Positions 10,931 through 53,830 are shown, numbered from the stretch's first letter. The stretch: DNA of 64,000 nucleotides from Gammaproteobacteria bacterium (GCA_049282355.1 JBAPTW010000152.1:1224-65223), one strand, 5' to 3'. Numbers and translations: made by a program. Notes: generated by a model from the letters alone, not told the origin.

Positions 10931-11020
10931 AACCCGCAGCGCCTCCTCAAATTGTTATTTCTTGGTTGTGGAGAGTGCTTTGTGCCACACCGTGAGCCAG
11001 CCGCCCATTGCTGCCCCTCG

Positions 11021-11497: not shown

Positions 11498-11811
11498 GGG
11501 GGTGATAATCTCCTACACCAGCGGCTTATCGTTCATCGGCATTTCCGCTCGTGCGCAAGCGCCATCCCCGCACGGCGCCTTCGAGGCGGTTCTAAAATGC
11601 CGCGACCGCCGGCACCACAGCAAGGCCACATGTACGCAAAACCTACAGTTCCCGACAGGATCAGTCAACTCTTCTCATCGAAAAGGCGCTACTGGTGATG
11701 CTATTTCACCATCCCGGTATCGTATCGACTCAATACATTTCTGGCAAGGCAAGATTTCCTGTGGTAGACCCCGAACGAAAAGTGCTGGAAACTCTCAAGA
11801 AGTAAAGTCGC

Positions 11812-12090: not shown

Positions 12091-12163
12091 TGCTAACATC
12101 CCCTAGATTGACTCTCAAGATTAACCAAACTTATTCATACCAAACCCCATAAGGAGGCTTGCC

Positions 12164-12814: not shown

Positions 12815-12960
12815 TCCTTATCCACACACCGACAAACGCAAGAGGCAGAGGGATACGCGAGGAAGGCAAAGTGTCGCTACTGAGCAGCATGGCGCAACAG
12901 GGATAGTGGCGTCACCGGATATCTCGTCTCGGGAGGTGGAAACTGGCTGGTTAATTGCGG

Positions 12961-25890: not shown

Positions 25891-26006
25891 CCGAGCACAG
25901 CCGCGGACGTAACCAGGAGGGATCTTAGCTGCGCGAAATTCGACTGGAGCATTTCTCCTTCCTCAATCGAGTTGAGAAACACACCTGCACCGAACGCGGC
26001 GTGGAA

Positions 26007-35698: not shown

Positions 35699-35981
35699 TA
35701 AGCAGGCAGGCGTTAGATTCGACGTCGAGGTGTCGAGGTCAGGGACCGCGGGCATGTTGGTTTGGCGCACTGCCATAGGCTAGGCCCACACCGGCTAATC
35801 TAGTTAGGTGCAAAAAGGACTGAAGCGGCGCGGCAGCGGAAAAAACATGAGGTCAGGCAGCAAACCTTCTTGAGCTGCCGATGACACCAACAACAAATCC
35901 TGTACCCTGTACCCCACCGGCAGCATGCGCCCGTGGGCGGCGAATCCCCACGATGAAATCAGAAAACCTGGAGTATGGTGC

Positions 35982-38989: not shown

Positions 38990-40171
38990 ATGGCCGAAAT
39001 CTTCCATGCCTTAGCCCTGAACCTGCATCAACCCGAAAACAATCTAGCCACACTTTGGGCACAAAACCAAGCGGAAGCCCTGGAAATCTTACGCGCCCTC
39101 GATCGGCTCTCGAAGGTGCTCGCATCCCATGACGATCGCGCACAAGTTCATCTCGCCATCTCCGGCACGCTGTTAAACTCGTTGGCCAGTGCCGACTTCC
39201 AGGAGCTTGTCTCTGAGTATCTCGACTGTCACGGGTTCCTGCGGGCAATCCAAAACCGGCGGATTTTCGAGATCCTCGGTACCGCCTATTATCACCCCGT
39301 GCTTCCCATCATTCCGCCCATTGATTGGGATGAGCACCTTACCCGCTGGGTTAATCTCGCACGCTACCTATTTGGCCGCACGCGCTTTGAAGGATTTTGG
39401 CCACCGGAGATGGGTTTCTGCATGGAGCTCATTCCACATTTGAAGCGCCTAGGCTATCGCTACGCGCTAGTGGACAGCGAGCACGTCGAGCCACTGACGC
39501 CGATGAACCGAGCAGAGCTACGCTACCTTCCCCACATCGCCGAGTTTGGCGGCGATGAGATGGTGGTCATTGTGCGTGACCGAGAGCTTTCCAACGCCAT
39601 CTTAGCAGACATGAGCTGTGATCAGTTCCAAGAGACGGTCCGCAAACAGACGAGCGAATGCTCAGCACCGGCAATGGTAACGCTGTGCGCCAACGGCGAT
39701 AACGGTGAGCGGTTTCGAAGCGCCGATCCGCAGGTAAATTTCTGGAGCAGCTTTTACCTGCCACTGTTGGAAAGTAGCGACACCCGCTCTCCCCTGCGGG
39801 CAGTTTTTGTTCACGACTACCTGAATCGCTATGGTACTTACGGCCGCGTAAAGGTCGGACCCGGCGCCTGGAATACGCCCTGGCACGACGGCAAAGATTT
39901 CGTGCAGTGGACGGGATCGGCGGCACAGCGAGAGGCATTAACTCGCTTGGATCAGGTCAGCCAGGCATTCCACACCGCAAGGGCAAACGTGATCGGCATA
40001 AGGGCAGAGAGCGACGAGATTCGCCACCAGCTTGAGGAGGCCCTCCGGCGAATTTTGAGAGCAGAGACAAGCTGTCATTTTTTCTGGGGCGAAGCTTGGG
40101 TCCCGCGCTGCCACCGCGATCTGGATGAGGCCTGTGCCTGCTTGGAACGCGCTTGGAACGCGCTCCGCTGA
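38990..40171 (+). CDS. GH57 family glycoside hydrolase
   Basis: LNLHQP, GTAYYHPVLPII, FWPPEMG (nucleophile Glu region) and CANGDNGERF motifs, in the order typical of GH57. Confidence 0.8.
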   Translation: MAEIFHALALNLHQPENNLATLWAQNQAEALEILRALDRLSKVLASHDDRAQVHLAISGTLLNSLASADFQELVSEYLDCHGFLRAIQNRRIFEILGTAYYHPVLPIIPPIDWDEHLTRWVNLARYLFGRTRFEGFWPPEMGFCMELIPHLKRLGYRYALVDSEHVEPLTPMNRAELRYLPHIAEFGGDEMVVIVRDRELSNAILADMSCDQFQETVRKQTSECSAPAMVTLCANGDNGERFRSADPQVNFWSSFYLPLLESSDTRSPLRAVFVHDYLNRYGTYGRVKVGPGAWNTPWHDGKDFVQWTGSAAQREALTRLDQVSQAFHTARANVIGIRAESDEIRHQLEEALRRILRAETSCHFFWGEAWVPRCHRDLDEACACLERAWNALR

Positions 40172-40194
40172 TATTTGCAAGTAAGTGACACTTA

Positions 40195-40337
40195 GAAGCT
40201 GTTTTAAAAATGTCGCGAGCGTCGACAGAGCAAGGCGCACGGCGGCGAGAAACCGGAGTGTACAAGGGAGTACATGAGGATTTTGAGCCGCCGCGCAACG
40301 CCGCTATGGCAAGCGCAGTAATTTTTAAAACAGCTTC
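40195..40337. mobile_element. Complete MITE-like element (143 bp), reference copy
   Basis: Perfect 16-bp termini GAAGCTGTTTTAAAAA / TTTTTAAAACAGCTTC. TTA lies on both flanks (40192-40194 and 40338-40340). The right TTA is the stop codon of the debranching enzyme gene. The element sits between convergent genes. Confidence 0.85.
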
Positions 40338-42248
40338 TTAACCCTGCCACAGCGCACAACTGAGTGGCGGAAGCTCGAGCCGACCACCCGTGCAAGGGAG
40401 TCGGGCACTGGTCAGTCCTCCGGGCTCGAAGCGCTCATGGTCGGCAAGTTGCCGCCACTGAGTCACATCGATATCTTCCAACGAGAGATGGACCGTCTCA
40501 TGGTGCGGATTAATGGCGAACAACAGCCGGTGCTGTCCCTTGCTGTAATCAGCATTGAACAAGACAGCCATGGCTGAACCCTGGGCGGCACCAAAGTAGC
40601 GGAAATAGTCATCCGAGGGGGGAGAATCCAGGCGAAACAGCCTGCCACTTTCCGATAGGCGGAATCGTATCCAGCGTCGAAAGTACTCGTGCGAGCCGGA
40701 GAATACGAGTAACCGATGATAATCGATGGCGTTCTCCTCCGGCGCGCGATAGCTGTTGTTTATGCCTCGCTTCGTACGCAGAGTATCTTGCCCGGCGGAC
40801 AACATGGGTATACCTAACGAGCACATCAAGACCGCCAACATGAGGTGAGTACGCCGCCGATCGTTCGCAGTGGGGTGGTCGCCCCGATGATGAGGGTTTT
40901 CCGTGATCTTGTCGATCCAGCAGAGATCGTCGTGGGATTCCACGTAATTGACGCTCTGTGCCGGCCAGGCGCTCAAGTGCGCGAGGCTTCCGGCCATGAA
41001 ATAGCGCAGTCCTGCCTGATTCCCCTGTCCCATGATGTAGTCGCGCAAAAACTCGCGATAGCCGTCGTTCCAGGAAGCGAAACCGCTCGATTTCAATGCC
41101 AAGGCAATATGACCCCTGAAGCTCCATGGCTCAGCGATGAGGATGACTGAGGGTTTGACACTCTTGAGCGCGGCCTCGATTTCCTTGAGCACCTTGACGC
41201 CGATTAGCTCGGCCAGATCGAAGCGAAATCCATCGATGTCGTAGGTCTCAATGAAATGAATGAGGCTGTCTATGATGAGCCGACGCCCCATTGGGGTATC
41301 ACAGCGCAAATCATTGCCACAACCGCTCCAGTTGCTAAGGTTCCCGCTCTTATCGAGTTGGAAGTAATAATGCTTATCGATGAACAAGAGGTGGTTTGGG
41401 TCACCGCTGTGGTTGTAAACTACATCCATGATGACCGCTATTCCTTGGTGATGAAAAGCGGCCACTAAGGCTCGGAATTCCTCCACCTGTGAGCCAAGCT
41501 CCGGTACCATTGCATAGCTGCTTTCCGGAGAAAAAAAGTTCACAGACATGTAGCCCCAGTGATAGTCATCCCGGGAATCGCAGCCTCCGAACTGCTGGAC
41601 CGGCAGCAACTCAACGGCGTTTACACCGAGGCTGCGCAGATAGGAACCCTGCGCCTCTACCCATCGCTGCAATCCGGTGAAACCGAGGCGCTCCTCGTCC
41701 TCCAAGGGTACGGGCGCATAGCGGATGAGATCGCGAACGTGCGCTTCTAGCACCACAAGATCGTGCCAGCAGGGCGGTTGGAACGACGGTTCGTCACGCT
41801 TCAGGCGCCGCCGATCCCAGATGATGCCTGGGCCACCCGGTCCCACGGTTGCCACAGCATAGGGATCGAGTATCCGGAACTCACCGTCAAAATGGCTAAA
41901 GGCATCCTGATCCAATGAATCCAAACGATAGTAGTAATACCAACCATGGAGGTTGGCGGGATAGCTTGCCTCCCAAACTCCGCTGTCGAGTCGGCTAAGC
42001 CGCTGTACCTTGGGCTCCGGACTATCCAAGTGTCTGAAAAAAAATACTCTGACGACCGCCGCCCGCGGTGCAAAGAGACGAAACACGGTGGTGTCTCCCC
42101 TCACGGAGGCACCAAGCCAACGATCGCTTCCTAGCCTTAATAGCGCCCCGCTCTCATCGAGCAGTTCTGCCTGCTCAACAAGCTCGGACAGCGATATTTT
42201 CTTGTCCACCTTAGCTCGCTGGCGTTCGTCCATCGACACCTTAGCCAT
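40338..42248 (-). CDS. Pullulanase-type GH13 debranching enzyme with N-terminal CBM48
   Basis: DVVYNHSG, GFRFDLAELIG, LIAEPWS, VNYVESHDD. The ATG at 42248 (MAKVSMDERQ) has AGGAGG 9 nt upstream. The ORF track's longer start at 42269 is GTG. Confidence 0.85.
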   Translation of the reverse strand: MAKVSMDERQRAKVDKKISLSELVEQAELLDESGALLRLGSDRWLGASVRGDTTVFRLFAPRAAVVRVFFFRHLDSPEPKVQRLSRLDSGVWEASYPANLHGWYYYYRLDSLDQDAFSHFDGEFRILDPYAVATVGPGGPGIIWDRRRLKRDEPSFQPPCWHDLVVLEAHVRDLIRYAPVPLEDEERLGFTGLQRWVEAQGSYLRSLGVNAVELLPVQQFGGCDSRDDYHWGYMSVNFFSPESSYAMVPELGSQVEEFRALVAAFHHQGIAVIMDVVYNHSGDPNHLLFIDKHYYFQLDKSGNLSNWSGCGNDLRCDTPMGRRLIIDSLIHFIETYDIDGFRFDLAELIGVKVLKEIEAALKSVKPSVILIAEPWSFRGHIALALKSSGFASWNDGYREFLRDYIMGQGNQAGLRYFMAGSLAHLSAWPAQSVNYVESHDDLCWIDKITENPHHRGDHPTANDRRRTHLMLAVLMCSLGIPMLSAGQDTLRTKRGINNSYRAPEENAIDYHRLLVFSGSHEYFRRWIRFRLSESGRLFRLDSPPSDDYFRYFGAAQGSAMAVLFNADYSKGQHRLLFAINPHHETVHLSLEDIDVTQWRQLADHERFEPGGLTSARLPCTGGRLELPPLSCALWQG

Positions 42249-42290
42249 TCGCGCTAACCTCCTGTCCACCTGCCTAAATGCATCCGTTGA

Positions 42291-43130
42291 TCAGCCAGCA
42301 GTCGAGACATCCATCAGGCCGAGCACTTCACCCGGAGGCACCTCGAACAAACGCCCGGCATGACTTAACCAAACGGATCGATGGGCATCGTTTCGTACCT
42401 GCCCGGTACCCGACAAGCCCATGAGCGCCCTAGCCGCCGTCAAATAATCCAAGACATCGAGAGTCGTGGCATAATAAACATCCGGGTTCCCATGCAGCAA
42501 ACGGCAGAACGCCTCCAAATAATCCCAATCTTTAAGTCGATCGGCACTCAGAAAACCATCAAACTCAAAGCTGTGTCCCCAGACATAGAGCAACGCCATC
42601 TCCCCGGCGTCATACCTCAGGAACCGTTCTCCCAGTTCCAAAGCTTGGTTGTGATGACAAGAGGTAGTTAGTGTCAGTGGCCGCTCTGGAAGCCCGAACC
42701 ATCCCGTGGTGTGAGTCGTTCGGCCATAAGCAAGGTCGAGCGCTGACAAGCGACCCATGACGCGCTCGTCGTAATCTCCAAATGGGTAGGCGAAACCGCG
42801 CACGGGAGCGCCTACCAGGTCCTCAAGAGCCTTCTGATCGTCAACAACTTCTCGGTCGATTCCCTCATTTGAGAGGGTGGTCAGATCAAGATGATTCGCC
42901 CCGTGGGCCGCCACCTCGTGGCCTTGATAAAGTGCTTGAACCTCGCCCCTCGCGATATGGTGAGGTATCCCGAGTCTTCCTGAATTGAGATGAAAGGTTG
43001 CCCGAAGACCATACTCATTGAGCATCGCCACCAGCCGGCGATCGTGCTCGCTCCCGTCGTCGTAGCTCATGATCAGGGCTTTTCGCTTTCCTTTCGGAAA
43101 GCGCACAACGAAATTGGCTTCTGTCTTCAT
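42291..43130 (-). CDS. CE4 polysaccharide deacetylase family protein
   Basis: NodB motifs MSYDDGSEHD and HEVAAHGANH, so the metal ligands are retained. Confidence 0.8.
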   Translation of the reverse strand: MKTEANFVVRFPKGKRKALIMSYDDGSEHDRRLVAMLNEYGLRATFHLNSGRLGIPHHIARGEVQALYQGHEVAAHGANHLDLTTLSNEGIDREVVDDQKALEDLVGAPVRGFAYPFGDYDERVMGRLSALDLAYGRTTHTTGWFGLPERPLTLTTSCHHNQALELGERFLRYDAGEMALLYVWGHSFEFDGFLSADRLKDWDYLEAFCRLLHGNPDVYYATTLDVLDYLTAARALMGLSGTGQVRNDAHRSVWLSHAGRLFEVPPGEVLGLMDVSTAG

Positions 43131-43217
43131 CGGACTACAGAACTCCCCATCAGTCCGTTACGAATCACCCTCGCAGCAATGGGCATAACCGTCCGAGCGG
43201 CCATCGCTGAATAGCGC

Positions 43218-44261
43218 TTAACCAGACCGCAGAGACAGGGCACAGGCATCTCTTAGCAACACGCCATTGTCGAGCAATCTGTCGAGCCAATAATTCATAC
43301 GCTCCGCAAAATATTTATCCTCCCAATGGCTGAACAGGTGGGCATGCTCTCCAAGCGGTGACCGCCCCTCCTGGGGATGGATCTCAAGCAGGCACGAAAG
43401 GTGGTCAGCAGTCAGCTCCGTCATGGCCGCCCGCATCAGGGCACGCAGTCCCGAAATCCCGAAGATTCCAGCGAGGAGCTGCCGATCTTGATAGGGAAAC
43501 GGAATACGAATGTGTTGAAGAAAGCTCAAGTGGTCTGAAACGCCAAATGCACTTAAGGTCGATAACGGATGGCCGTCGTGCAAGTGCAAATGCAGAGGCT
43601 TGCGCAGCCGGGCCAGGCGCTGCACCAGCTCAACGACTGCCGCCTTTGCCGAGGCTACCGCCGCCTGCACCGCTGCGATGCGATCCATGAGCTCTGGACT
43701 ATCGGGACGCAAGGCGCAAACGTCATCGCCCTGCTGCTGTGCTGCATACGTTTGCCGGCAACAATGGATGGCAACGTGGGATACATCAATGGCGGCACAG
43801 ACGTGCTCTAGCGCGGCGGTTTGCTCAAAGAGTGTGGCAAAAAACTCCAGTGGGAGCCCCGCGGCATACTCCACAAACAACAACGGCGCCTTCGTGATCC
43901 CTTGAAGCCGTCGCTCCACCTCCTCGAAAGCCAATACCGTTGCCTGTGGCTGGGTCTCAAAGACTTTCTGATCGTGCACCAAGATGCCATAGAGCTCTCC
44001 GGCAGCGCAGATCGCATAGTCACAAATAACGCTTTGGCCGGCGTCGCTCAAGAGATCGACGTCACGCGGCAGATGGGCCGTAGAGGCTTGCCCATCTGGC
44101 CTGTAGGCCATCAGCATCGCCAAGTGTTCCGGGCTGTCCGGGTAGAGCTCGCCTCCCAAGCCTGCTTCAGCAAGGCGCGCCTGTGCCAACCGCAGCAACG
44201 CCTCGTCACCACAAATCGGCGGTTGAATCGAAAGCATGGCAAGGAGCTTGGGAGAATTCAT
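43218..44261 (-). CDS. Hypothetical protein with xylose-isomerase-like TIM-barrel (AP endonuclease 2 superfamily) ligand pattern
   Basis: The ordered motifs LFVEY, IDVSHV, HLHLHDGHP and LLEIHP match the E / D..H / HxH.D / E metal-ligand spacing of that fold. No closer family recognised. Confidence 0.5.
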   Translation of the reverse strand: MNSPKLLAMLSIQPPICGDEALLRLAQARLAEAGLGGELYPDSPEHLAMLMAYRPDGQASTAHLPRDVDLLSDAGQSVICDYAICAAGELYGILVHDQKVFETQPQATVLAFEEVERRLQGITKAPLLFVEYAAGLPLEFFATLFEQTAALEHVCAAIDVSHVAIHCCRQTYAAQQQGDDVCALRPDSPELMDRIAAVQAAVASAKAAVVELVQRLARLRKPLHLHLHDGHPLSTLSAFGVSDHLSFLQHIRIPFPYQDRQLLAGIFGISGLRALMRAAMTELTADHLSCLLEIHPQEGRSPLGEHAHLFSHWEDKYFAERMNYWLDRLLDNGVLLRDACALSLRSG

Positions 44262-44309
44262 GGAAAATGCCTGGGACGATTAGGGATCATCTACAGCGGG
44301 TACCTTTTT

Positions 44310-47300
44310 CTACGAAAGGCCCTGCTGAGGACGGCTCTGAACCAGGTAGACTGTGTTGTTCGCAATAACCCCCTCAACGTCCTGGGGCGAGCCAAAGCGG
44401 GCTTCCAGAAATGCGGCGATGTCAATAAGGCGAGCGCCGAGCTGCTCGGCGTTTGCCGCATCGACTGACCACGGTACCAAAGTGTAATCGATTCGCTCCG
44501 TCGTCGGTATCTGAGGGCCCGGACGCAAAGCGAAGCTGAAACTGGCGAGTCGCGTAAGCCGCGCCTGCCCCTTCTTGCGATCGCAAAGCAAACGATAAGG
44601 ACTCCCCGACTGCACCGCCGACGCCAGTGTCTCGCCGAGCCCAACCGCCAACTCCACAGCAGCTTGCTCGCGACTGCCGGTAATGGGATCGGCGGTGTGC
44701 ATGATGAAGGACAGCTCCGGGTGCACCATCTCTTGAACCAACACCGCCATACGCACCTGTTCGTGGGCAATGCCGCAGGCCATGCGGCTTAACGCCGCGC
44801 GCCACGTCCATAATGATGCCCAGACCGACCGCACCGCTTCGGCAAGCCCTTCCCGGCTAACGCCGATCACTGAGTCGTAAAGCCCCGCACCGGCAAAATC
44901 CTTTAGATCCTCGCCGTTGGCGCTAGAGCGCACCGCCAGCCGCCGATCTTGGGCAAAAAGCTCTCCGAGCTCAGAGAACAGATGATCCGGTATCGGTACC
45001 GTTCTCAGCAGTGCCCGTAATTCCCCGAGACGTTGTTCTTGCTCTTCGGACGAAGCCCTTTCCAAGGCCTGCTGAAGCCGCTGATATCGCGCCTCCAATG
45101 CAGGATTCAAGGACAAGCAACCCTCCATCACGCCAAAGGGCAGTACCCGCCCGCTGGGCGCCCGAAACAAGCCGCTTTCTTCGGCCAGGGCCAGTAACCG
45201 GCCCGCGGCGGCGGCCTTTGCGCCACAAGTCGAGGTTTCGGCGACCGGCAAAGGAAGCGACTGAAGCTCGGTGGCGAGAGTGGTCGCCAGTAGCGCAGGC
45301 GGAGCGACGGGCAACCGCTCGGCCGGGTGGGAATTATCCTCGGCTCGCTCTAACAAGAGTTGCTCGGCCGCGACGCTAAGCTTCACCCAACTGTTGACCA
45401 GCGTCTGGAATTGCTCCAGCTGATCGCGCGCATCGGCAGTTACAAAGGGCACGCGGGCCTGACGTGCGCGCACACCCAAATGGGAAAGATGGGGAATGGG
45501 ATGGGCAAGCAAAATACCCCTCACATGGCGCGGGATTTCCTCGTCTCCGTCCGCACGCCCCAGCAGTACGATCAGTGGCGCGGACGGTGAAGCCAAGGCT
45601 GCCAGCTCATCCGTGCGCACCAGCCGCCCGTAAGCCTCCCCGGCAACCAGCGTCTCCCACGGCGGTAGACCAAGGGCCGTTCGTAGCGCCGTCCGCGCCA
45701 TGTCCACGAGCTTGGAGAGCTGAAATACAATGTTGCCGCGAATATCCCCTTCGCAAAATACCTCGATGGCGTGTTGGGGAACCCCCAGCGCCGTGCCAAG
45801 TAAGCTCACCCGATCGGCAAACAACCCAACCACTTTGTCGCTGTAGCCCTCTCCTAAGCGCTGCGCCCGTTCCAAGGTCGCCAATAGCCGCCGAAGCTGA
45901 AAATCACTGCTCGGATCGAAGGCCTCTGACCACCGCGCCAGTTCCGACTCGATGACGGCACACTCCTGCGCTTCTATCTGGCTCAATCGAACATTGGCGA
46001 CGAGATAACGCAGAGCACTGAGCACATCTTGCCAATAATCGGTTATCGCGAGCGGCTCCAGCTCATTGGCGAGCTCACTGGTTAACACAAAGGCGTAATC
46101 TTCAAGACCAATGTCGGCGAGATGCAGGCGCTGCCTTGCGACACCCGTCACCGCATCCCGGTACTTAACCAGAGCTTGGCGCAGCTCAGTGAGCATCCCT
46201 AAGAGTACCCCACAATCCTCCAGGTTTCGTCCCGCAGCCGCTTTCCGATCGAGAAACGCACGGGCACGCTCGGCATCAGCCGTGCTGAGCGACGGTTGCA
46301 GCTCGAGCACCCGCTGTTCCATGCCGGTGGCGTTGAAAAACTCGCTGAGCTCTTGGTGAAAGATCTCGAACTGATTGACGAAATCAGGCGAGTAATCGCT
46401 GCCGGGCAGGGTGATCCTTGCCAGAATTTCCTCCGAAGTCTTGAGGTCCTCGGGGCCTGCGCAGCGATGCAGCTTGTTTTGCAAGCGGTGCTTGATCTCG
46501 TGCTTTAGCTCCTTCGGGATATCATTGCGGTGGGCGATGTCGCGGATACGAGTCAGCGGTTCGCGCCGGAAAAATTGATCGCTATGAGAGGGCAGCCAAG
46601 GCAGAATTTTACGCACAATCCAGGCATTATCCTGGGACTCCAGAGCGTCCAGCGCCTTTTCGATGGCGAGCGCCGCGCGGGCATGGTGATTGGGACGAAA
46701 GTGTCGCCCATCCTCCGCACAGGAAACCTCCGCGGTTCCCAGGAAGCGCAGATACGCCGCGATGGTGGCAAGCTCGCCTAAGGAAAGCGGCGAGTCTTCT
46801 CGTGTCAGGCGCTCGCCCACCCAAACCAGCCGCTCCCGCCAACTGGCGTGTCTCCGGTGAGCCGCGACTAACTCGGCGATGAACGGATCGCTGATGGCCT
46901 CGGGGTCGAGCGTGGTGCGGCTCGCAACCGCTTCCTCGGTACCGCCAGCCGGTTGCTCGGGCGGCGAAACCGGCTTTTCTCCAGTCACTGGTCGACGTTT
47001 TTCGGGGCGCCGTTTCTCACCGGCCCGCCCGAGCAGCGGGCGCAGCCGCTGCTCCGCTTGCAACAACAAATCGCGAGGCTCCGGCCACTGCTCAAGAATG
47101 AGAGCCCCGCTGAAGCGCCGCCTGCGCAAACGTTTGATGAATGCGCGGATCCCGCCATCGTTGTCGCCCGCCGGACCGCTGAAAACAGTCAGGTGACTAT
47201 CGGCATCGCCATAGTTCTCATGCACGTGGGCGTGAATGATCGGCACTTCGGGAGCCAGTTCATCGATATAGCGGATATAGTCGTTGCGTGTTGGCGCACA

Positions 47301-47840
47301 AAGGTTCGCATGGCCTAGATCCAGGCAAAATCCCACGTGCGCCGCACCACCATTGAGATGGCGCAGTGCGGCAAACGTTCGGTTGATGTCGTCAGGAGTG
47401 GTGTGCGGTGTGTTCTCGATACTGATGCTCACACCAAGCGCGGCAGTGCGGCGAATGACCGGTTGCAATGCGTGCACATAGCCTTGTGCTCCCTCGTCCA
47501 TGTACAGATGCAGATTAACGATATCAGCGCCGATAGAACGGGCGAATTCGAGGCTTTCCAGCAGTAGATTATTCCCGTCTGGCCAGAGCGGATTGGCTTG
47601 CCAGGGGGCGTGGACGCTGTAACGGATGTCCCGCGCTTCACCGAGTTGCCGGATCTCGTCGCGCATCGGGTCATCCATATCGCCGCTATCCCAGCCCGAA
47701 ACACTGCCGTCCTCATAGACTTTCTTATCCACGAACCACTCAAATGCATCGAACCCATGAGCGAGCGCGAATTCGAAGGGTTCCAGTGGGGTCGTGGCAG
47801 AAAAGGCTGTTTGGTTACCAATGCGAATGCGCCGAGTCAT
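44310..47840 (-). CDS. Phosphoglucan water dikinase (PWD/GWD3)-like protein with N-terminal xylose-isomerase-like TIM barrel
   Basis: N-terminus (about nt 47025-47840): HAPW, VNLHLY, ISIENT, CLDLGHAN, HAHVHEN, ILEQW. Centre: RIRDIAHRNDIPKELKHEIKHRLQNKLHRCAGPEDL. Phospho-His motif PHLSHLGVRARQARVPFVT (His codon 45480-45482). C-terminal nucleotide-binding domain: CGAKAAAAGRL...SSANGEDLKDFAGAGLYDS...VLVQEMV. Confidence 0.8.
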   Translation of the reverse strand: MTRRIRIGNQTAFSATTPLEPFEFALAHGFDAFEWFVDKKVYEDGSVSGWDSGDMDDPMRDEIRQLGEARDIRYSVHAPWQANPLWPDGNNLLLESLEFARSIGADIVNLHLYMDEGAQGYVHALQPVIRRTAALGVSISIENTPHTTPDDINRTFAALRHLNGGAAHVGFCLDLGHANLCAPTRNDYIRYIDELAPEVPIIHAHVHENYGDADSHLTVFSGPAGDNDGGIRAFIKRLRRRRFSGALILEQWPEPRDLLLQAEQRLRPLLGRAGEKRRPEKRRPVTGEKPVSPPEQPAGGTEEAVASRTTLDPEAISDPFIAELVAAHRRHASWRERLVWVGERLTREDSPLSLGELATIAAYLRFLGTAEVSCAEDGRHFRPNHHARAALAIEKALDALESQDNAWIVRKILPWLPSHSDQFFRREPLTRIRDIAHRNDIPKELKHEIKHRLQNKLHRCAGPEDLKTSEEILARITLPGSDYSPDFVNQFEIFHQELSEFFNATGMEQRVLELQPSLSTADAERARAFLDRKAAAGRNLEDCGVLLGMLTELRQALVKYRDAVTGVARQRLHLADIGLEDYAFVLTSELANELEPLAITDYWQDVLSALRYLVANVRLSQIEAQECAVIESELARWSEAFDPSSDFQLRRLLATLERAQRLGEGYSDKVVGLFADRVSLLGTALGVPQHAIEVFCEGDIRGNIVFQLSKLVDMARTALRTALGLPPWETLVAGEAYGRLVRTDELAALASPSAPLIVLLGRADGDEEIPRHVRGILLAHPIPHLSHLGVRARQARVPFVTADARDQLEQFQTLVNSWVKLSVAAEQLLLERAEDNSHPAERLPVAPPALLATTLATELQSLPLPVAETSTCGAKAAAAGRLLALAEESGLFRAPSGRVLPFGVMEGCLSLNPALEARYQRLQQALERASSEEQEQRLGELRALLRTVPIPDHLFSELGELFAQDRRLAVRSSANGEDLKDFAGAGLYDSVIGVSREGLAEAVRSVWASLWTWRAALSRMACGIAHEQVRMAVLVQEMVHPELSFIMHTADPITGSREQAAVELAVGLGETLASAVQSGSPYRLLCDRKKGQARLTRLASFSFALRPGPQIPTTERIDYTLVPWSVDAANAEQLGARLIDIAAFLEARFGSPQDVEGVIANNTVYLVQSRPQQGLS

Positions 47841-47947
47841 AGGAGCTATCCAAGCTATGCGGGAGTGACAAATGTTGCCGGCGATTGTACCTCCAACCCA
47901 CCGCGGCCACGACCATCCGCCGGCAGCTTCCCGTTACCCAAGGGTCC

Positions 47948-50900
47948 TTATAGCCCCACCTGGGGACGTGTTTGCACCACGTACAACTCCCCCTGCTGCA
48001 CGGCGCCTTCAATATCTTGCGCTGACCCCAGGGTTTGTTCTATTTCGCTTCCAAGGCGGGCGATCTTCGCCAGCAGATCCTGGCGAAACCCACGATCGCA
48101 AACCAGCGGCTCGTCGCAGTAGTCTACCAAGCGCTGGCATGGCGCCTGCGCCAAAAAGCTATCGTAGAGCCCGGCGCCGGCAAACCCCTCGAGATCTTCG
48201 CCGTTCGAGTCAGAGCGAAAGATGACTCCCTGGCCATCCAGAGCAATGCTCTTGCTCGGGTATGATACGGGGGATAGCGCCAAGCTGTCTTTGCGACAGA
48301 TAAAACCCAACGCCCGTCCAGGATAATTTCCCACCAGCGTCTCGCCCATGCCGACGACCACCTCGGCGAACAGCTCGTCGGTGGCGCCTGTTAACGGATT
48401 TACCGTATGGATCACGAAGGCATACTGCGCCTGCACGACTTGTTGAATCAATACCGCAAGCATCAAATCCTCGTGGGCAATCTTGAGCGTCGTGCGCGAA
48501 TAATAAGCGCGCTCGTTCCACTTTGATGCCCACACTCGACACAATGCTCGCCACACAGAGGTCCATTCGTTGTCCGGCAAACCTGCTTGCCTCCATACTT
48601 CGCCGAGAGCATCCCGAAACGCCGCCGGCGCCTCGAGCGCGAGCAGAGCCTCCCTTAACTGCGCTAACACGCGCTGCGGATCGCGCTCCAACTCGCCCAG
48701 CAGCTGCTCATAGCGCTTCGCCAGCGGCGAGTTCTGCCGACACTGCAGGATTTCCTCAAAGACCCCAAAGGGCACAGCGATAGAAGTGGGAAATCGGATC
48801 CAGCTCGATAGCCGGCCCTGCAAATCCACCAGGTGGCTAGATTTGCCCCCGACCAATTCGTCGCGGAATGACGCCGACCCGATCGCCCAGGTAGAGAATG
48901 GCCGCCGTCGCACCTCGACTGCGGGCCGTCCGCGCGGCGCCACATCACCGGGCGCGGCCTCTTGCGCTTCCTCAAAGGTAACGTCTCCCCCGGCGTTCAC
49001 GGCAAAACGCAAGCGATGATGCTCTAGCGCCTTTAGCTGCTCATAGGTGACCTCATCGAAGCAAGTCGCGAACAGTACATGGGCGTTTCGTGCTCGCACC
49101 GCCACGTGGGACACTAAGTCAGGGGTATCACGGGTGATCACGGAGGTAACCCCGTCCGGGATTTCTTCGTCGCCCGCCACGCGATCGCTGACTAACACGG
49201 TCGGCTCCGGGTAACGCTGCCCCTGAGCGTTCAGCAGGCTATTGAGGACACATACCCGACCCGCCGCCAAGGAGGCGGGACTGATGATCTGCCATCCTCC
49301 CGTGCCGCAGCGGGCTCGCAGCACGGGATCCAACCGCCGCAGTAGCGCCGACAACACGAACGGCAGATTGCCACGAATAATCTCCTCACTGAAAACCGCA
49401 ATGGTCCATTGAGCGACACCGAGCGCCTCTCCCAAAAACTCGGCCTGTGGCTGCAGACGACGATAAAGTGCATCGCTCCAATCACCGGTAACACGGGCAG
49501 CCCGGTCGGTGACACTCTTGACCTGCAGAGCCCAATCAACATCCCGCTCCCGCGCCCTGGCAAGGCCACCGAGCTGGCGAGCCACGAAAGCAAACTCTGT
49601 CTCGCCGAACGACAGGCCCATATTGTGCGCTGTCGTCGCCGCGAGCGAGGTCAGGGCCTGCACATCGACATCGCGTAAGGCCTGACGTTCAATGGCAGCG
49701 CGTAGCGCCTGCTCAAGTGCCAGATCGAGATAAAGCATGTCCCGCAAGACCCGCGGCTCATCGGTGGCATCGATACGGCGGGCAAGCAACTGACGGGTCT
49801 CGGTTAGGAGCTCCGCCCACCCCGGCAAAGCGCTGCTATCGGTAACACCCGCCCGCAATCGATTCAGCAGTTCTCTCGTGCGCTCGTCCAACCTCGCTTC
49901 CGCAGCGGCGATGGCAGATTCCATGTCGGTCCCCGAGTGCACCGAGCGCAGTAACCGCAGGAAACCCTGAAAATCACCTACCAAGCCTTGCTTCTTCTCG
50001 GCGTAGAACTGAGGGTCAGTTTTTATGGGACGTTCGAAGCTTGCCAGACGCTCCCGGCTCACACCACCGCGCTCCAGGGTGCGGTAAAAAGCATCCAGCG
50101 CACCGTCAGCCTGAAGAAAGGCAAGGTAGGCCTCGCAAATAACCACGTCGTCGGGGGTGGTATTGTTGTGCAGCTTCTGATGCCACTCTTCCAGAAAGGT
50201 ACCGTGCACTTCCTTGATATGGTGGCTATGCATGATGTTGAGGATCTCATCCCTGACCCGCTGTCCTTCCCCACCAGGACCAAGGGTGGTCAACATCAGC
50301 CGCACAGCGGGCCGACTCGTTGGATAATCTTTGTAGATACTCGCCAGGCGCAAGGTCAAGCGATCCTGGGCGTGCGCGAGCTCACGGGGTTGGGTGTTGT
50401 ACCGGCGCTGCCAGTCCAGCTGACGAATGGCCGAATAGCGCAGCCACGTATAGATCAGCGCCAGTGCCTCGTCATTCTCCTCCGCCCCCTCCAGCACCTC
50501 GTAGCACAGATTGAAACGGTGCATGAGGGTCCAAGACTGTCGCCCCGTCTCGGCGCCGATGATCCGCTGTGCGAGCTGTTCCAAATTCCCCGCCGCAAGG
50601 ATCTTCTTGCCGGCTGAGACCACGCGCAACCGCAGCTCCATGTCACCCCTATCCGCCTTAATCCAGCGCTCCTGCGAAGAGGCATAAAGCACGAACTGTA
50701 TGGCGGGGGGCACATTCGCCTTGGCGAAGCTCATTTCCAGCCAACGCAGCCTATCTTGATCGCGAAACGGCGTCTGCAGCGCCTTATTCTGAAAATCTCG
50801 ACTTCCTGGAGGCCATATTGTCTTCGGCGGCATCTGCCAGCCATCGTCAGAGCCCCCGACAATACCCCAGTGCAGCCACACGGGCGCATCGACATCGGTC

Positions 50901-51430
50901 ACGAAAACCATCTCCGTTCCGGTGTCGCTCTTCAGCGTTGCCGCCGCCAAGCTCTCGCCTGTGTCAAGGTGGAATGTTTGCCGACCCCAATCCGCGCCCC
51001 TGATCCGTCCCTCGATCGCTTCCACGGGGCTTGGGGCTTGCTTTTCGGCAGGAAGGGTGAGGCAAAAATCATCCTTACCATCCTTTATCCAACGCCGTTC
51101 TTCCGGCAGGTATAACACGAACGGTAAAGCGTTCCAGCTCAGCGGCCGGTCGAGCCGCACCGCCAGTGTCGCCCGACCCGGTGCACTCGGCTCTAGCGGG
51201 CTTTGCACCGCATGATGGTCAACAGCGACGGTCTGCGGCGGCCAAACCGAAGGAGGTGGCAGATGCCAGTTGCGATCCCGGTGACGCCGCAAGCCCCAAT
51301 GCAAGCAGCACGGCTTATCCGTTTCTATGTCAAAAATTAGGGTTAAATGCCGATCCGAGCACTGCTTGGTCACTCGAATAGCGATCTCACCGGCCCGGTA
51401 AGTTTTCTCAACCCATTCTTCATTATTCAT
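47948..51430 (-). CDS. Alpha-glucan water dikinase (GWD1)-like protein with two N-terminal CBM45-like modules
   Basis: Two repeats carry LHWG..W..PP..WPP and FVLY...ERWIK (about nt 50624-51391). Other motifs: EEWHQKLHNNTTPDDVVICEAY, the phospho-His motif LVSHVAVRARNAHVLFATCFD (His codon 49106-49108), and the C-terminal VGGKSSHL...DSNGEDLEGFAGAGLYDS...VLIQQVV. ATG at 51430; the longer TTG start at 51463 is possible. Confidence 0.85.
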   Translation of the reverse strand: MNNEEWVEKTYRAGEIAIRVTKQCSDRHLTLIFDIETDKPCCLHWGLRRHRDRNWHLPPPSVWPPQTVAVDHHAVQSPLEPSAPGRATLAVRLDRPLSWNALPFVLYLPEERRWIKDGKDDFCLTLPAEKQAPSPVEAIEGRIRGADWGRQTFHLDTGESLAAATLKSDTGTEMVFVTDVDAPVWLHWGIVGGSDDGWQMPPKTIWPPGSRDFQNKALQTPFRDQDRLRWLEMSFAKANVPPAIQFVLYASSQERWIKADRGDMELRLRVVSAGKKILAAGNLEQLAQRIIGAETGRQSWTLMHRFNLCYEVLEGAEENDEALALIYTWLRYSAIRQLDWQRRYNTQPRELAHAQDRLTLRLASIYKDYPTSRPAVRLMLTTLGPGGEGQRVRDEILNIMHSHHIKEVHGTFLEEWHQKLHNNTTPDDVVICEAYLAFLQADGALDAFYRTLERGGVSRERLASFERPIKTDPQFYAEKKQGLVGDFQGFLRLLRSVHSGTDMESAIAAAEARLDERTRELLNRLRAGVTDSSALPGWAELLTETRQLLARRIDATDEPRVLRDMLYLDLALEQALRAAIERQALRDVDVQALTSLAATTAHNMGLSFGETEFAFVARQLGGLARARERDVDWALQVKSVTDRAARVTGDWSDALYRRLQPQAEFLGEALGVAQWTIAVFSEEIIRGNLPFVLSALLRRLDPVLRARCGTGGWQIISPASLAAGRVCVLNSLLNAQGQRYPEPTVLVSDRVAGDEEIPDGVTSVITRDTPDLVSHVAVRARNAHVLFATCFDEVTYEQLKALEHHRLRFAVNAGGDVTFEEAQEAAPGDVAPRGRPAVEVRRRPFSTWAIGSASFRDELVGGKSSHLVDLQGRLSSWIRFPTSIAVPFGVFEEILQCRQNSPLAKRYEQLLGELERDPQRVLAQLREALLALEAPAAFRDALGEVWRQAGLPDNEWTSVWRALCRVWASKWNERAYYSRTTLKIAHEDLMLAVLIQQVVQAQYAFVIHTVNPLTGATDELFAEVVVGMGETLVGNYPGRALGFICRKDSLALSPVSYPSKSIALDGQGVIFRSDSNGEDLEGFAGAGLYDSFLAQAPCQRLVDYCDEPLVCDRGFRQDLLAKIARLGSEIEQTLGSAQDIEGAVQQGELYVVQTRPQVGL

Positions 51431-51498
51431 TTTGATACCGCCTGGGAACCTCAGGCAAAGCAACTAGGTATACCTCCAATGGCTTTAGGGATACCCCC

Positions 51499-51527
51499 TT
51501 GACAGGGCCATTAGCGTAGGATAATTT
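51499..51527 (+). promoter_or_regulatory. Candidate sigma70-type promoter for the phasin gene
   Basis: TTGACA (51499-51504), a 17-nt spacer, then TAATTT (51522-51527), about 50 nt upstream of the phasin ATG. It lies in the divergent intergenic region shared with the GWD-like gene. Confidence 0.4.
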
Positions 51528-51577
51528 GTTCTTGTTGCAGTGCAGCATTCAAACACAGACCATTGCGGAGCCCGGAC

Positions 51578-52069
51578 ATGCCTGAGAAAGCCCAATCCTT
51601 TAACCCGTTTGATATGAGCAAAGTACTCTCCGAATTCGACCCAAGCAAGATGATGAACCAGGTCACAAAGGCCTTTTCCGATTATAAAGTACCCGGATTA
51701 GATATGAGCGCGGTCATCGAACATCAGCGCAAGAACATCGAGGCGTTAACCACCGCGAATCGACAAGCCCTTGAGGGGCTGCAAGCAATCGCCATGCGCC
51801 AAAGCGAAATCCTACGCCAAACCATGGACGAAGCGGTAGCAGCGTTGAAAGATCTCTCCTCTTCCGAAGGCCCAACCGAGGCAGCCTCGAAGCAGGCTCA
51901 ACTCTTGGGGAAAGCCCTCGAAAAGGCGCTGACCAATATGCGCGAGCTGGCCGAAATGGCGACCAAATCCAATACCGAAGCATTTGAAGTCGTCAAGACT
52001 CGCATGACAGAAAGCGTCGAGGAGATCAAGCAACTCGCCAGAAAGATGCCCGGTCAACAGAAAGCCTAA
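51578..52069 (+). CDS. Phasin family protein (TIGR01841-like)
   Basis: MPEKAQSFNPFDMSKVLSEFDPSKMM...IEHQRKNIEALTTANRQALEGLQAIAMRQSEILRQTMDE, the typical phasin helical repeat. GGAG lies 7 nt upstream of the ATG. Confidence 0.8.
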   Translation: MPEKAQSFNPFDMSKVLSEFDPSKMMNQVTKAFSDYKVPGLDMSAVIEHQRKNIEALTTANRQALEGLQAIAMRQSEILRQTMDEAVAALKDLSSSEGPTEAASKQAQLLGKALEKALTNMRELAEMATKSNTEAFEVVKTRMTESVEEIKQLARKMPGQQKA

Positions 52070-52099
52070 GATCTCGCTTCTCAGCGGGTAAATTGATTT

Positions 52100-52129
52100 G
52101 GGGCCAGGCTAATTCACTGGCCCCTTTTT
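52100..52129 (+). terminator. Rho-independent terminator after the phasin gene
   Basis: GGGGCCAG-(9 nt loop)-CTGGCCCC followed by TTTTT. Confidence 0.65.
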
Positions 52130-52150
52130 CGTGCCGGGAAGTTGCCGGCA

Positions 52151-52180
52151 GACCAAGTGCAGTAGTTTTTAAAACAGCTT

Positions 52181-52181
<1 letters not shown>
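52151..52181 (+). repeat. Right-end fragment of the MITE-like family overlapping the pgi stop codon by 1 nt
   Basis: ACCAAGTGCAGTAGTTTTTAAAACAGCTTC compared with GGCAAGCGCAGTAGTTTTTAAAACAGCTTC at 59379-59408. Confidence 0.75.

Positions 52182-53830
<1,649 letters not shown>

Follow-up and report, generated by a model that had tools for sequence, protein, structure and literature searches.

The locus described here raises the question of what a xylose-isomerase-like TIM barrel does at the N-terminus of a phosphoglucan, water dikinase (PWD). Reversible glucan phosphorylation governs the mobilisation of storage polyglucans (GWD/PWD with SEX4/LSF2 in plants, laforin in animals), and defects in this cycle lead to starch-excess phenotypes and to Lafora disease. 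Plant PWD carries a CBM20 at its N-terminal position and needs a glucan that is already phosphorylated. The window, a stretch of 64,000 nucleotides from a Gammaproteobacteria bacterium (GCA_049282355.1), holds a gene in which a barrel precedes the dikinase. A sequence-only reading had suggested that this barrel stands in place of a carbohydrate-binding module (CBM) and could act by epimerisation, dehydration or phosphoester cleavage.

The ORF at 44310-47840 on the minus strand begins at the first start codon that follows a stop, is open throughout and encodes 1176 aa; its features and neighbours are listed in Table 1. All the motifs quoted in that reading were located in the ORF, namely ISIENT (aa 139-144), CLDLGHAN (aa 172-179), HAHVHEN (aa 203-209), ILEQW (aa 248-252) and KRRPEKRRP (aa 276-284), and the nucleotide span it had given for the barrel translates to exactly the residues in the table. 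The basic, proline-rich linker that it placed before a dikinase body was likewise found. The linker shows no conservation in an alignment of 120 sequences, it has pLDDT below 50 at aa 284-289 in the AF2 model, and the span from EQWP to SWRxRL in homologues ranges from 34 to 180 aa with a median of 72.

Table 1. Features of the fusion gene and its neighbours (coordinates of the window)
Feature	Coordinates	Strand	Residues and evidence
Upstream GWD1-like alpha-glucan, water dikinase	47948..51463	-	1171 aa; Pfam, JGI source names
N-terminal xylose-isomerase-like TIM barrel	47025..47840	-	aa 1-272; Pfam PF01261, AF2, Foldseek
Putative trinuclear-metal ligands of the barrel			H77, H111, E142, D174, H177, H207, D214, H216, E250
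Basic, Pro-rich, non-conserved linker	46866..47024	-	about aa 273-325, includes KRRPEKRRP
Conserved central region of the dikinase	45660..46865	-	about aa 326-727; conservation profile
Phosphohistidine domain	45333..45659	-	aa 728-836; Pfam-A PF22973 (GWD1_pHisD), E 9e-20
ATP-binding domain (PPDK_N / PEP-utilising)	44322..45227	-	aa 872-1173; Pfam-A PF01326, E 1.2e-37
347-aa 'hypothetical' protein (unk347), second very divergent TIM barrel	43218..44261	-	AF2, hhalign

The comparison with other genomes shows that the gene product is a natural fusion of two enzymes. PF01261, pHisD and PPDK_N occur together in 119 of the 120 best protein clusters, down to 42% identity; these three-domain proteins are mostly 1124-1250 aa long (up to 1311), and the sole exception, 805 aa long, is a fragment from a contig of 2.8 kb. 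The recurrence that the sequence-only reading had proposed to survey is thus widespread, with the fusion present in more than 100 clusters from Proteobacteria, Desulfobacterota and Planctomycetota, and the barrel and dikinase body share one continuous frame in 44 of 56 related loci. Although split versions of both genes exist in other lineages, we consider it practically negligible that assembly or annotation mis-joined two genes in this MAG, a case the earlier reading had named against itself, since, besides the shared architecture and the continuous frames, the same 1176-aa protein occurs unchanged on two contigs, its 4-member cluster is drawn from NCBI, ENA and Logan assemblies, and the window sequence has neither a stop nor a frame change in the ORF.

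For the C-terminal about 850 aa, the profile matches in Table 1 and the conserved His787 show a PWD-type glucan dikinase with ATP-binding and phosphohistidine domains, as had been proposed. PF22973, PF01326 and His787 together are the domain content of a glucan, water dikinase (GWD/PWD; EC 2.7.9.4 / 2.7.9.5). The putative catalytic His787 lies in HLSHLGVRARQ and is nearly invariant (at least 90% of 45 sequences), and the ATP domain matches PDB sequences of the PEP synthase / rifampin phosphotransferase type (E 6e-29). The central region contains a near-invariant EPLTRIRDIAHRNDIP...LQNKLHRCAGPEDL block and aligns with the neighbouring GWD (EEWHQKLHNNTTPDDV), the local alignment having 28% identity overall. 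The JGI source names also agree, with 'phosphoglucan, water dikinase' for the fusion family and 'alpha-glucan, water dikinase' for the upstream neighbour.

By domain content and source names, the two bacterial dikinases resemble plant PWD/GWD3 and GWD1 in having a GWD-type phosphohistidine domain and PPDK_N, and the adjacency of their genes mirrors the sequential action of GWD and then PWD in plants. The source names and the conserved gene order, GWD before PWD, are at most indirect pointers to a plant-like C3 specificity and need for pre-phosphorylated glucan in the bacterial PWD. Unlike plant PWD, the bacterial fusion has an enzyme-type barrel (PF01261) at its N-terminus and no CBM20; no CBM of any kind was found by Pfam in its 1176 aa. 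The description of the barrel as replacing a CBM was not supported as worded. In Isosphaeraceae and other lineages, a separate barrel gene of 277-295 aa stands directly before a separate PWD gene of 824-893 aa, and these split PWD genes also have no CBM. The barrel is encoded by a gene of its own that became fused, which makes the wording misleading.

The fold of the barrel was examined by the checks that the earlier reading had proposed, and a TIM fold was confirmed. The AP_endonuc_2 profile (PF01261) matches aa 22-258 with E 1.3e-21 and 77.8 bits, where the curated cut-off is 31.1, and spans profile positions 1-237 of 249. For aa 1-290, AF2 predicts a (beta/alpha)8 barrel of eight strand/helix units with a mean pLDDT of 91.0 and a pTM of 0.89. 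In Foldseek, this model falls with the xylose-isomerase-like barrels (best E 1.5e-12); the search gave 286 PDB matches at E<=1e-3, and the best 50 of these 286 all belong to the xylose-isomerase-like superfamily. The profile match and the model together show a xylose-isomerase-like TIM barrel at aa 1-272, predicted to be a metalloenzyme.

In the model, the putative ligands are found at the C-terminal ends of strands 3-8 or shortly beyond them, the strand spans that end near them being 73-77, 107-111, 138-142, 169-174, 201-207 and 246-250. All nine, which match those of endonuclease IV (Endo IV), are invariant in 89 of 89 fused and standalone sequences, so the ordered metal-ligand pattern noticed earlier is intact and the feared absence of ligands was not borne out. 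H203, H205, E208, E34, W35 and W252 are invariant as well, and several invariant Trp/Phe follow just after the strand ends of the catalytic face. In the HMMER register, H111, E142, D174 and H177 fall on LLNFH/VIENT/CIDTCHA of E. coli Nfo (H109, E145, D179 and H182), and the remaining ligands fall on the ASFV AP endonuclease (FHLND...GIDRH) and MJ1311; their counterparts in Nfo we take to be H69, H216, D229, H231 and E261.

By profile comparison, the nearest characterised relatives of the barrel are MJ1311p, endonuclease IV and CbiR, not the sugar epimerases, while Foldseek ranks epimerases and AP endonucleases alike. Against PDB sequences, the E values were 7e-13 for MJ1311, 4e-5 for M. tuberculosis Endo IV and 2e-3 for the ASFV AP endonuclease, and weaker for UlaE (6e-3), Nfo (1.5e-2) and D-allulose 3-epimerase (0.31). 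Among the 18,950 NCBIfam models scanned, the CbiR cobamide phosphodiesterase ranked first (1.6e-9, and 1.3e-12 when a standalone orthologue was used), followed by deoxyribonuclease IV.

MJ1311p of Methanocaldococcus jannaschii (PDB 3WQO, 'D-tagatose 3-epimerase-like protein') is the top match by profile and also by structure (Foldseek E 1.5e-12, TM 0.68/0.73). It shares VHAP / VVHPG / LENMP / FDIGHAN / IIHVHAHDNNGxDDEHL / SIE with the barrel at about 19% identity, and the nine Endo IV zinc ligands were reportedly noted as conserved in its 2014 structure paper. It is, however, a standalone archaeal protein and, unlike the barrel, has no known link to glucan dikinases. Since its substrate and function are unknown, no function can be transferred from it.

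Endonuclease IV (E. coli Nfo, M. tuberculosis End, ASFV pE296R) has the fold and the ordered nine-ligand constellation in common with the barrel. It acts on the sugar-O-phosphate bond and removes 3'-phosphates from deoxyribose. The barrel differs in its extra invariant His203/His205, its aromatic-rich face and its neighbourhood, which is that of glycogen/alpha-glucan metabolism and not of DNA repair. With 17.7 bits against an NCBIfam deoxyribonuclease IV cut-off of 244, an E of only 0.015 to Nfo in the PDB search, and this neighbourhood, membership in the Endo IV family was rejected.

CbiR identity was rejected in the same way, with 37.7 bits (47.8 for the standalone orthologue) against the NF041277 equivalog cut-off of 105; its partner genes differ, and no cobamide gene was found in any locus examined. 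CbiR of Akkermansia muciniphila, likewise an AP_endonuc_2 barrel, hydrolyses the phosphodiester linkage to a sugar hydroxyl in a substrate other than DNA, which means that the superfamily contains phosphodiesterases acting on the sugar-O-P bond outside DNA. The function of CbiR, like the one proposed here, was first deduced from the gene neighbourhood (PMC7733943).

The genomic linkage of the barrel was evaluated in dereplicated loci. In the window, the GWD1-like gene, whose product has Ig_N_CWD1 in two stretches followed by pHisD and PPDK_N (Pfam), is separated from the fusion gene by a 107-nt gap, and the surroundings include GlgB (two copies), GH13, GlgA, GH57, pullulanase/GlgX, MalQ, GlgC and PGI. 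The barrel subfamily is small (420 matches at E<=1e-3 among 1.84 billion representatives). A GWD1-like gene lies immediately upstream in 28/35 fused and 10/11 standalone loci, that is, the barrel is directly downstream of it in 38 of 46 decidable loci; the partner is absent nearby in 7/35 fused loci and in one GWD locus (L091). Three layouts are known, namely fused, split and lone. Lone barrel genes of 270-330 aa are found in many bacteria directly downstream of a GWD1-like dikinase, and in 11 dereplicated loci this occurs with no PWD, so the most constant partner of the barrel is GWD and not PWD. When the sampling of contigs started from GWD and disregarded the barrel, a 273-284-aa AP_endonuc_2 gene directly followed GWD in 5/6 long contigs, sometimes with no other glycogen gene nearby.

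Downstream of the fusion gene, unk347 has no Pfam match even at E 10. Its AF2 model is nevertheless a TIM barrel (pLDDT 96.4) and hhalign relates it to the N-domain profile with a probability of 91.9% and E 7e-7, the aligned ligands being in register through the H224-H228 strand. Its invariant residues show the same ordered ligand pattern: H63, H96/D97, E131, D159, H162, H224/H226/H228, D243/H244 and E293. Its gene directly follows PWD in 22 of the 25 decidable dereplicated loci and is present in 0 of the 11 lone-barrel loci; unk347 is the conserved partner of the PWD module and co-occurs only with it. One dikinase goes with one barrel, and two dikinases with two barrels.

From the ligand set and the gene context, we infer, with about an even chance of being right, that GWD, barrel, PWD and second barrel form a reversible glucan phosphorylation module in which the barrels are metal-dependent phosphoglucan phosphoesterases comparable to SEX4/LSF2. 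The active site of the barrel resembles that of an enzyme that cuts phosphate esters, and the barrel may thus be an undescribed kind of glucan phosphatase. It would hydrolyse the sugar-O-phosphate ester placed by the glucan dikinases on the alpha-glucan or on released phospho-oligosaccharides, and the operon (GWD, barrel::PWD, unk347) would encode a full phosphorylation/dephosphorylation cycle. Phosphorylation by the dikinases would loosen the storage polyglucan, the barrels would strip the phosphate, and nearby exo-acting enzymes (pullulanase/GlgX, MalQ, GH13, GH57) could then complete the degradation, with the flexible linker tethering phosphoesterase and dikinase on one polymer surface. Somewhat more tentatively, the two related Endo IV-like barrels may constitute an unrecognised glucan phosphatase class, each paired with one dikinase in a complete bacterial module. 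In the literature searched, no paper was found that describes such a module with barrel phosphoesterases.

In function, the module would correspond to plant GWD/PWD together with SEX4/LSF2, although its phosphatases would have an unrelated fold. The proposed removal of dikinase-installed phosphate from a storage glucan recalls SEX4, LSF2 and laforin, and two phosphatase candidates beside two dikinases parallel the count in plants. These phosphatases are, however, Cys-based and of dual specificity, whereas the barrel is a predicted metal-dependent TIM barrel, so the likeness is one of function only and itself conjectural. A dual-specificity phosphatase fold with a CX5R loop was rejected for the barrel, whose fold is a TIM barrel by AF2 and Foldseek, and no dual-specificity-phosphatase match was obtained in the 25 larger window ORFs scanned against Pfam. 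A kinase and a phosphatase fused on one polymer would look futile unless their positions or times of action differ.

Of the three chemistries named by the sequence-only reading, phosphoester cleavage probably fits best, given the nine Endo IV-type ligands and the CbiR and Endo IV matches, while epimerisation or dehydration appears less favoured. Its main suggestion was a sugar isomerase, epimerase, dehydratase or lyase. Such an enzyme would alter the phosphorylated glucose unit, or a sugar phosphate set free from the glucan, at a single Mn/Co site of the kind found in ketose 3-epimerases, UlaE, IolE or the 3-keto-glucoside lyases. The residues alone would allow such chemistry because E142, D174, H207 and E250, the E-D-H-E set of ketose 3-epimerases, and the D..H pair are present. 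Databases label the standalone form 'sugar phosphate isomerase/epimerase', Foldseek finds D-psicose/D-tagatose 3-epimerases, DgpB-C and a 3-keto-glucoside lyase at TM 0.55-0.66, and there are weak matches to L-ribulose-5-P 3-epimerase (4e-5, NCBIfam, standalone orthologue) and to UlaE in the PDB search. However, five more invariant ligands (H77, H111, H177, D214 and H216) complete the nine-residue Endo IV site, and we know of no counterparts of H77, H111, D214 and H216 in epimerase active sites. The profiles favour CbiR, Endo IV and MJ1311 over D-allulose 3-epimerase and over psicose epimerase (5.6e-3 in NCBIfam, with 16.5 bits where the cut-off is 300). In addition, C3 epimerisation would find no keto group on a glucosyl unit within a polymer, and across the loci examined the module has no conserved oxidoreductase that could produce a 3-keto intermediate. 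We therefore regard this chemistry as unlikely.

It is more doubtful still that the barrel is a non-catalytic or regulatory module whose metal site binds the phosphate ester placed by GWD and targets the PWD body to pre-phosphorylated glucan, which would make it a functional CBM substitute. Its location where plant PWD has CBM20, the requirement of plant PWD for pre-phosphorylated glucan, the lack of a detected CBM in the fusion, the flexible tether and the invariant Trp close to the strand ends all fit such targeting. On the other hand, lone barrels accompany GWD with no PWD in the 11 dereplicated loci and in the 5/6 GWD-sampled ones, an unattached targeting module beside a separate PWD gene is hard to explain, and the retention of all catalytic-type residues in 89/89 sequences is typical of an active enzyme.

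An equally doubtful reading takes the barrel not as a monoesterase but as a phosphodiesterase of glucan phosphodiester cross-links, cyclic phosphates or a nucleotide-linked or other small diester of the pathway. Endo IV and CbiR, its nearest characterised relatives, are indeed phosphodiesterases, but GWD/PWD chemistry is established to give monoesters, and no diester-forming enzyme is conserved in the module. This reading is a variant of the phosphoesterase explanation and not its true opposite.

A bacterial pathway of reversible glucan phosphorylation and its enzymes appear to be undescribed in the literature searched. The locus shows that bacteria of several phyla carry GWD- and PWD-type dikinases within glycogen gene clusters, that these dikinases are constantly accompanied by a specific metal-site TIM barrel, in some cases as a fusion, and that the PWD module comes with a second, unannotated barrel family that has no Pfam match. 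If the two barrels are indeed a glucan phosphatase class, the starch-type phosphorylation cycle would not be a eukaryotic invention, and its phosphatase arm would have been solved twice by evolution. As phosphoglucan phosphoesterases, they would give starch and glycogen biotechnology a new class of enzymes with which phosphorylated starch could be dephosphorylated or tailored, would assign a function to the orphan MJ1311-like branch of the AP_endonuc_2 superfamily, and would offer a simple bacterial model of the phosphorylation cycle and its evolutionary origin. Whether or not the chemistry proves to be another, the tight linkage between dikinase and barrel marks an unknown step in bacterial polyglucan metabolism.

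The fusion ORF (1176 aa, open from the first possible start codon) encodes an N-terminal barrel and a dikinase body, and all the motifs quoted by the sequence-only reading were located in its translation, as listed in the table together with the other features. The xylose-isomerase-like TIM barrel proposed in that reading was confirmed by the Pfam profile search, by AlphaFold2 and by Foldseek: aa 1-290, modelled with 45 homologues, form a (beta/alpha)8 barrel with a pLDDT of 91, and the top matches of the N-domain model in the PDB are exclusively xylose-isomerase-like barrels. The ordered metal-ligand pattern is borne out as well, since H77, H111, E142, D174, H177, H203, H205, H207 and E208 are invariant in 89 fused and standalone barrels, likewise D214, H216, E250, E34, W35 and W252. 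In the AlphaFold2 model, the invariant residues are found at or just past the C-terminal ends of strands 2-8.

Features of the window and of related loci (L numbers) and a library protein (P0324)
Source	Feature	Position	Strand	Remarks
Window	Branching-enzyme-like GlgB, 1219 aa	5136-8795	-	Three matched stretches each of GlgB_N and CBM48 before the GH13 catalytic domain
Window	GH31	26001-28328
Window	GlgB, 816 aa	32621-35071
Window	GH13/hDGE-like gene	35925-37253
Window	GlgA	37333-38805
Window	GH57	38990-40171
Window	Polysaccharide deacetylase (NodB-type)	42291-43130	-	Between unk347 and pullulanase/GlgX-like gene, co-oriented
Window	unk347, 347 aa	43218-44261	-	No Pfam match; TIM barrel in AlphaFold2 model
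Window	Fusion gene	44310-47840	-
Window	GWD1-like dikinase	47948-51463	-	Ig_N_CWD1 (two matched stretches), GWD1-type motifs
Window	Phasin (PHA-granule protein)	51563-52069	+	Between GWD gene and PGI
Fusion protein	AP_endonuc_2 (xylose isomerase-like TIM barrel)	aa 22-258		Pfam E 1.3e-21, 77.8 bits, cut-off 31.1
Fusion protein	ISIENT	aa 139-144
Fusion protein	CLDLGHAN	aa 172-179
Fusion protein	HAHVHEN	aa 203-209
Fusion protein	ILEQW	aa 248-252
Fusion protein	KRRPEKRRP	aa 276-284
Fusion protein	GWD1_pHisD	aa 728-836		Pfam
Fusion protein	PPDK_N	aa 872-1173		Pfam
L012	Split barrel / PWD	9995-10828 / 11014-13488		277 aa / 824 aa
L013	Split barrel / PWD	7812-8699 / 8686-11367		295 aa / 893 aa; barrel ORF overlaps PWD ATG by 14 nt
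L029	Split barrel / PWD	10001-10867 / 11052-13586		288 aa / 844 aa
L033-L035, L044, L048, L049, L061, L066, L067, L079-L084, L092-L094	Lone barrel			Directly downstream of GWD1-like gene, without PWD or unk347
L063	Stretch similar to PWD	4590-4943		Between barrel gene and GH13-like gene
L090	unk347 homologue and preceding gene	7791-10041		Riflebacteria
L094	Second AP_endonuc_2 gene, 303 aa	15450-16361		About 4 kb downstream of GWD+barrel pair
P0324	Barrel copies	aa 3128-3327, 3763-3981
P0324	GH13-like region	aa 1865-2143

A profile built from 17 N-domains was searched against all PDB sequences. MJ1311p was matched best (7e-13), followed by M. tuberculosis endonuclease IV (4e-5), the ASFV AP endonuclease (2e-3), UlaE (6e-3), E. 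coli endonuclease IV or Nfo (1.5e-2), TTHB071 (0.09) and D-allulose 3-epimerase (0.31). In Nfo, LLNFH (109), VIENT (145) and CIDTCHA (179/182) align with VNLH, SIENT and CLDLGHA of the barrel, while FHLND...GIDRH of the ASFV enzyme and IIHVHAHDNNGYDDEH of MJ1311 align with its HxHxHEN...DxDSH. On these alignments, the barrel carries the nine-ligand constellation of the trinuclear site of endonuclease IV, with the remaining Nfo positions placed by the standard numbering of that enzyme. Among the 18,950 NCBIfam models, the best was that of the cobamide phosphodiesterase CbiR (domain, 1.6e-9; standalone orthologue, 1.3e-12) with deoxyribonuclease IV next, and every match was under the family cut-off. 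The barrel is inside the PF01261 superfamily but below the cut-offs of the endonuclease IV, CbiR and epimerase families proper, and it belongs with the orphan MJ1311-like branch. A DNA-repair AP endonuclease accidentally fused to the dikinase was rejected on account of these scores and the tight linkage to GWD.

The ligand set and the nearest relatives point to phosphoester hydrolysis as the probable chemistry. Endonuclease IV also acts on deoxyribose as a 3'-phosphatase. A precedent outside DNA is CbiR, an AP_endonuc_2 barrel hydrolysing a phosphodiester to a sugar hydroxyl on a non-DNA substrate (PMC7733943). Of the options raised from the sequence, phosphoester cleavage is favoured by ligands and relatives, and epimerisation less so. 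The four-ligand set of the ketose 3-epimerases is a subset of the invariant barrel residues, as expected if the barrel were an isomerase, epimerase or lyase of sugars or sugar phosphates; however, H77, H111, D214 and H216 go beyond this set and are not known to have a role in epimerase chemistry, and we regard such an enzyme as unlikely. A diesterase variant of the phosphoester chemistry is considered quite improbable.

The window proteins were mapped with tblastn in 88 related loci, and dereplication at 90% barrel identity left 62 representatives. The collection is redundant in part, and contig ends truncate many of its loci; the counts use decidable cases. Three layouts were found: GWD, fused barrel-PWD and unk347, as in the window; the same order with separate barrel and PWD genes; and GWD followed by the barrel alone. 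Of the 40 representatives in which barrel and PWD are fused or adjacent, 35 could be decided for GWD, and it lies directly upstream in 28 of these. The frame from barrel to PWD is discontinuous in 12 of 56 loci, 10 of which look like genuinely separate adjacent genes, with L071 and L063 (short PWD remnant) as odd cases. The stretch in L063 has weak similarity (36%) to the central PWD region and may be the leftover of a deleted PWD gene. Split versions occur in many independent Isosphaeraceae/Planctomycetota assemblies. Those of Isosphaeraceae fall in clusters of 129 and 147 sequences whose listed members come from NCBI, JGI, ENA and Logan, and therefore they are not sequencing errors.

Eleven representatives show the lone-barrel layout. 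Their barrel ORFs, taken from stop to stop, span 267-333 aa, except in L067, where the frame stays open back into the last part of the GWD gene and reaches 426 aa. In 10 of the 11, GWD lies upstream, and the gene after the barrel is usually GH13/hDGE-like. Sampling from the GWD side gave the same picture, with a 273-284-aa AP_endonuc_2 gene directly downstream of five out of six GWD homologues, which had been chosen solely by the length of their contigs; in two of these five barrel loci, the 7-kb flanks contained no further called gene related to glycogen. Since some loci, such as L094, have no other glycogen gene nearby, GWD and the barrel look like the minimal conserved pair. L094 also carries a second AP_endonuc_2 gene.

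The barrel subfamily is narrow (in 1.84 billion representatives, 420 matches at E<=1e-3, of which 103 reach E<=1e-30), and its matches are a mixture of proteins of about 1150-1200 aa and about 265-330 aa. In a neighbour-joining tree that lacks bootstrap support, standalone barrels are scattered among fused ones, and this pattern suggests that fusion, fission or loss took place repeatedly. As a gene product the barrel is autonomous, and its constant partner is GWD. The earlier description of a barrel in place of a carbohydrate-binding module therefore misses the situation, as the standalone and split forms make it a dikinase-accompanying enzyme gene fused to the next gene of the operon. The same forms, together with the full conservation of the catalytic-type residues, speak against a non-catalytic phosphoglucan-recognition module, to which we also assign a low probability. 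In a giant multidomain protein of 5557 aa from the representative library (P0324), local BLASTP located two barrel copies and a GH13-like region resembling the GH13/hDGE-like protein of the window; adenylate-kinase-like, HD and metallophosphatase motifs were also seen by eye.

The fusion itself recurs in other genomes, a survey that the sequence-only reading had suggested. The same three Pfam domains are present in 119 of the 120 best protein clusters, with identity down to 42% and lengths mostly of 1124-1250 aa (up to 1311), the remaining one being a fragment of 805 aa from a contig of 2.8 kb. Named sources of the clusters include Planctomycetota and Deltaproteobacteria, and the loci groups comprise Gammaproteobacteria with Thiotrichales, a 'Methylobacillus' MAG and Desulfobacterota. 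The exact protein is MFZ0255710.1 of a Gammaproteobacteria MAG and is present on two contigs; its cluster has 4 members from NCBI, ENA and Logan assemblies. With this architecture in 119 clusters and the exact protein on two contigs, a mis-joined ORF was rejected, and an artefact is hardly conceivable. The public annotation names are 'PEP/pyruvate-binding domain-containing protein', 'TIM barrel protein', 'phosphoglucan, water dikinase' and 'sugar phosphate isomerase/epimerase'. Between EQWP of the barrel and SWRxRL, the first conserved dikinase motif, homologues have 34-180 unconserved residues, and aa 284-289 have low modelling confidence in AlphaFold2. The joining segment is a flexible tether.

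By domain criteria, the dikinase body is a member of the GWD/PWD family. The JGI family names are 'alpha-glucan, water dikinase' for the upstream GWD and 'phosphoglucan, water dikinase' for the fusion. The two bodies share 28% identity over the local alignment and differ in their motifs, which are EEWHQKLHNNTTPDDV and VSHVAVRARN in GWD compared to LQNKLHRCAGPEDL and LSHLGVRARQ in the fusion; we take these to match plant GWD1 and PWD, respectively. Our putative assignment of the body as PWD-type rests on the source names, these motifs and the lack of the Ig/CBM45-like domains that GWD1 has at its N-terminus. Unlike plant PWD, the fusion protein has no N-terminal CBM20. More than 1500 homologues of the window GWD were found in metagenomes. 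A full-text search, whose scope took in a minority of the subscription journals, found no literature on bacterial GWD/PWD or on a dikinase-barrel association, the matches being to pyruvate, water dikinase or plants. In the genome paper of Desulfotignum phosphitoxidans (PMC4046663), the neighbouring genes Dpo_3c01990 and Dpo_3c02000 are both listed as 'pyruvate water dikinase'. As Desulfobacterota carry the pair of GWD and barrel-PWD, these may be mis-annotated glucan dikinases.

The downstream hypothetical protein unk347 had zero Pfam matches even at E<=10 and nothing significant against the N-domain with BLASTP; the relation was revealed only by profile-profile comparison with the N-domain family (91.9% probability, E 7e-7). 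Its AlphaFold2 model has a pLDDT of 96, and its invariant residues follow the same order as in the N-domain: H63, H96/D97, E131, D159, H162, H224/H226/H228/D229/H231, D243/H244 and E293/H295. In the profile-profile alignment, the aligned ligands keep their register from H63 up to and including the H224-H228 strand; the alignment ends before D243/H244 and E293. The unk347 protein is a second TIM barrel, a paralogue of the fused N-domain that has diverged very far. Its profile gave no relative among the PDB sequences, only spurious matches, and Foldseek matched its model to generic TIM barrels (TM<=0.5), which provide no functional lead. It has about 1000 homologues, and all the source-named ones among the best 120 listed are called hypothetical. 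The gene tracks the PWD module, being directly downstream in 22 of the 25 decidable fused or adjacent representatives compared to none of the 11 lone-barrel loci. A Riflebacteria homologue with 45% identity (L090) has no dikinase nearby, and thus the family has at least one other context; just ahead of this homologue, 1 nt away, is the gene of a 402-aa protein without Pfam match whose N-terminus looks hydrophobic and signal-like by eye.

As a whole, the window is a large region of alpha-glucan metabolism. The order on the minus strand is GlgC, MalQ, PGI, [phasin on the plus strand], GWD, fusion gene, unk347, polysaccharide deacetylase and pullulanase/GlgX-like gene. The position of the phasin gene is kept in the related loci L001 and L002, and that of the deacetylase solely in L002, a close relative. 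The unusual 1219-aa GlgB comes on top of the normal one. A promoter and terminator scan of 40000-52200 gave counts not above those of shuffles and is therefore uninformative on the operon limits. No Pfam match to a dual-specificity phosphatase was found in the 25 larger window ORFs scanned, and the flanks examined likewise gave no such call.

Two dikinases of unlike subtype and two related metal-site barrels are part of one co-oriented gene string within a glycogen gene cluster, and across the layouts there is one barrel per dikinase. We propose that the barrels would take off the phosphate esters that the dikinases put on the polyglucan, or on phospho-oligosaccharides freed from it. That they constitute a new class of glucan phosphatase is a tentative proposal, to which we give somewhat less than an even chance. 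Phosphate removal by the barrels would close a cycle of phosphorylation, loosening, degradation and dephosphorylation, similar to that of plant GWD/PWD with SEX4/LSF2, and we put the chances at about even that the barrels are the removers of dikinase-installed phosphate esters which complete this glucan phosphorylation cycle.
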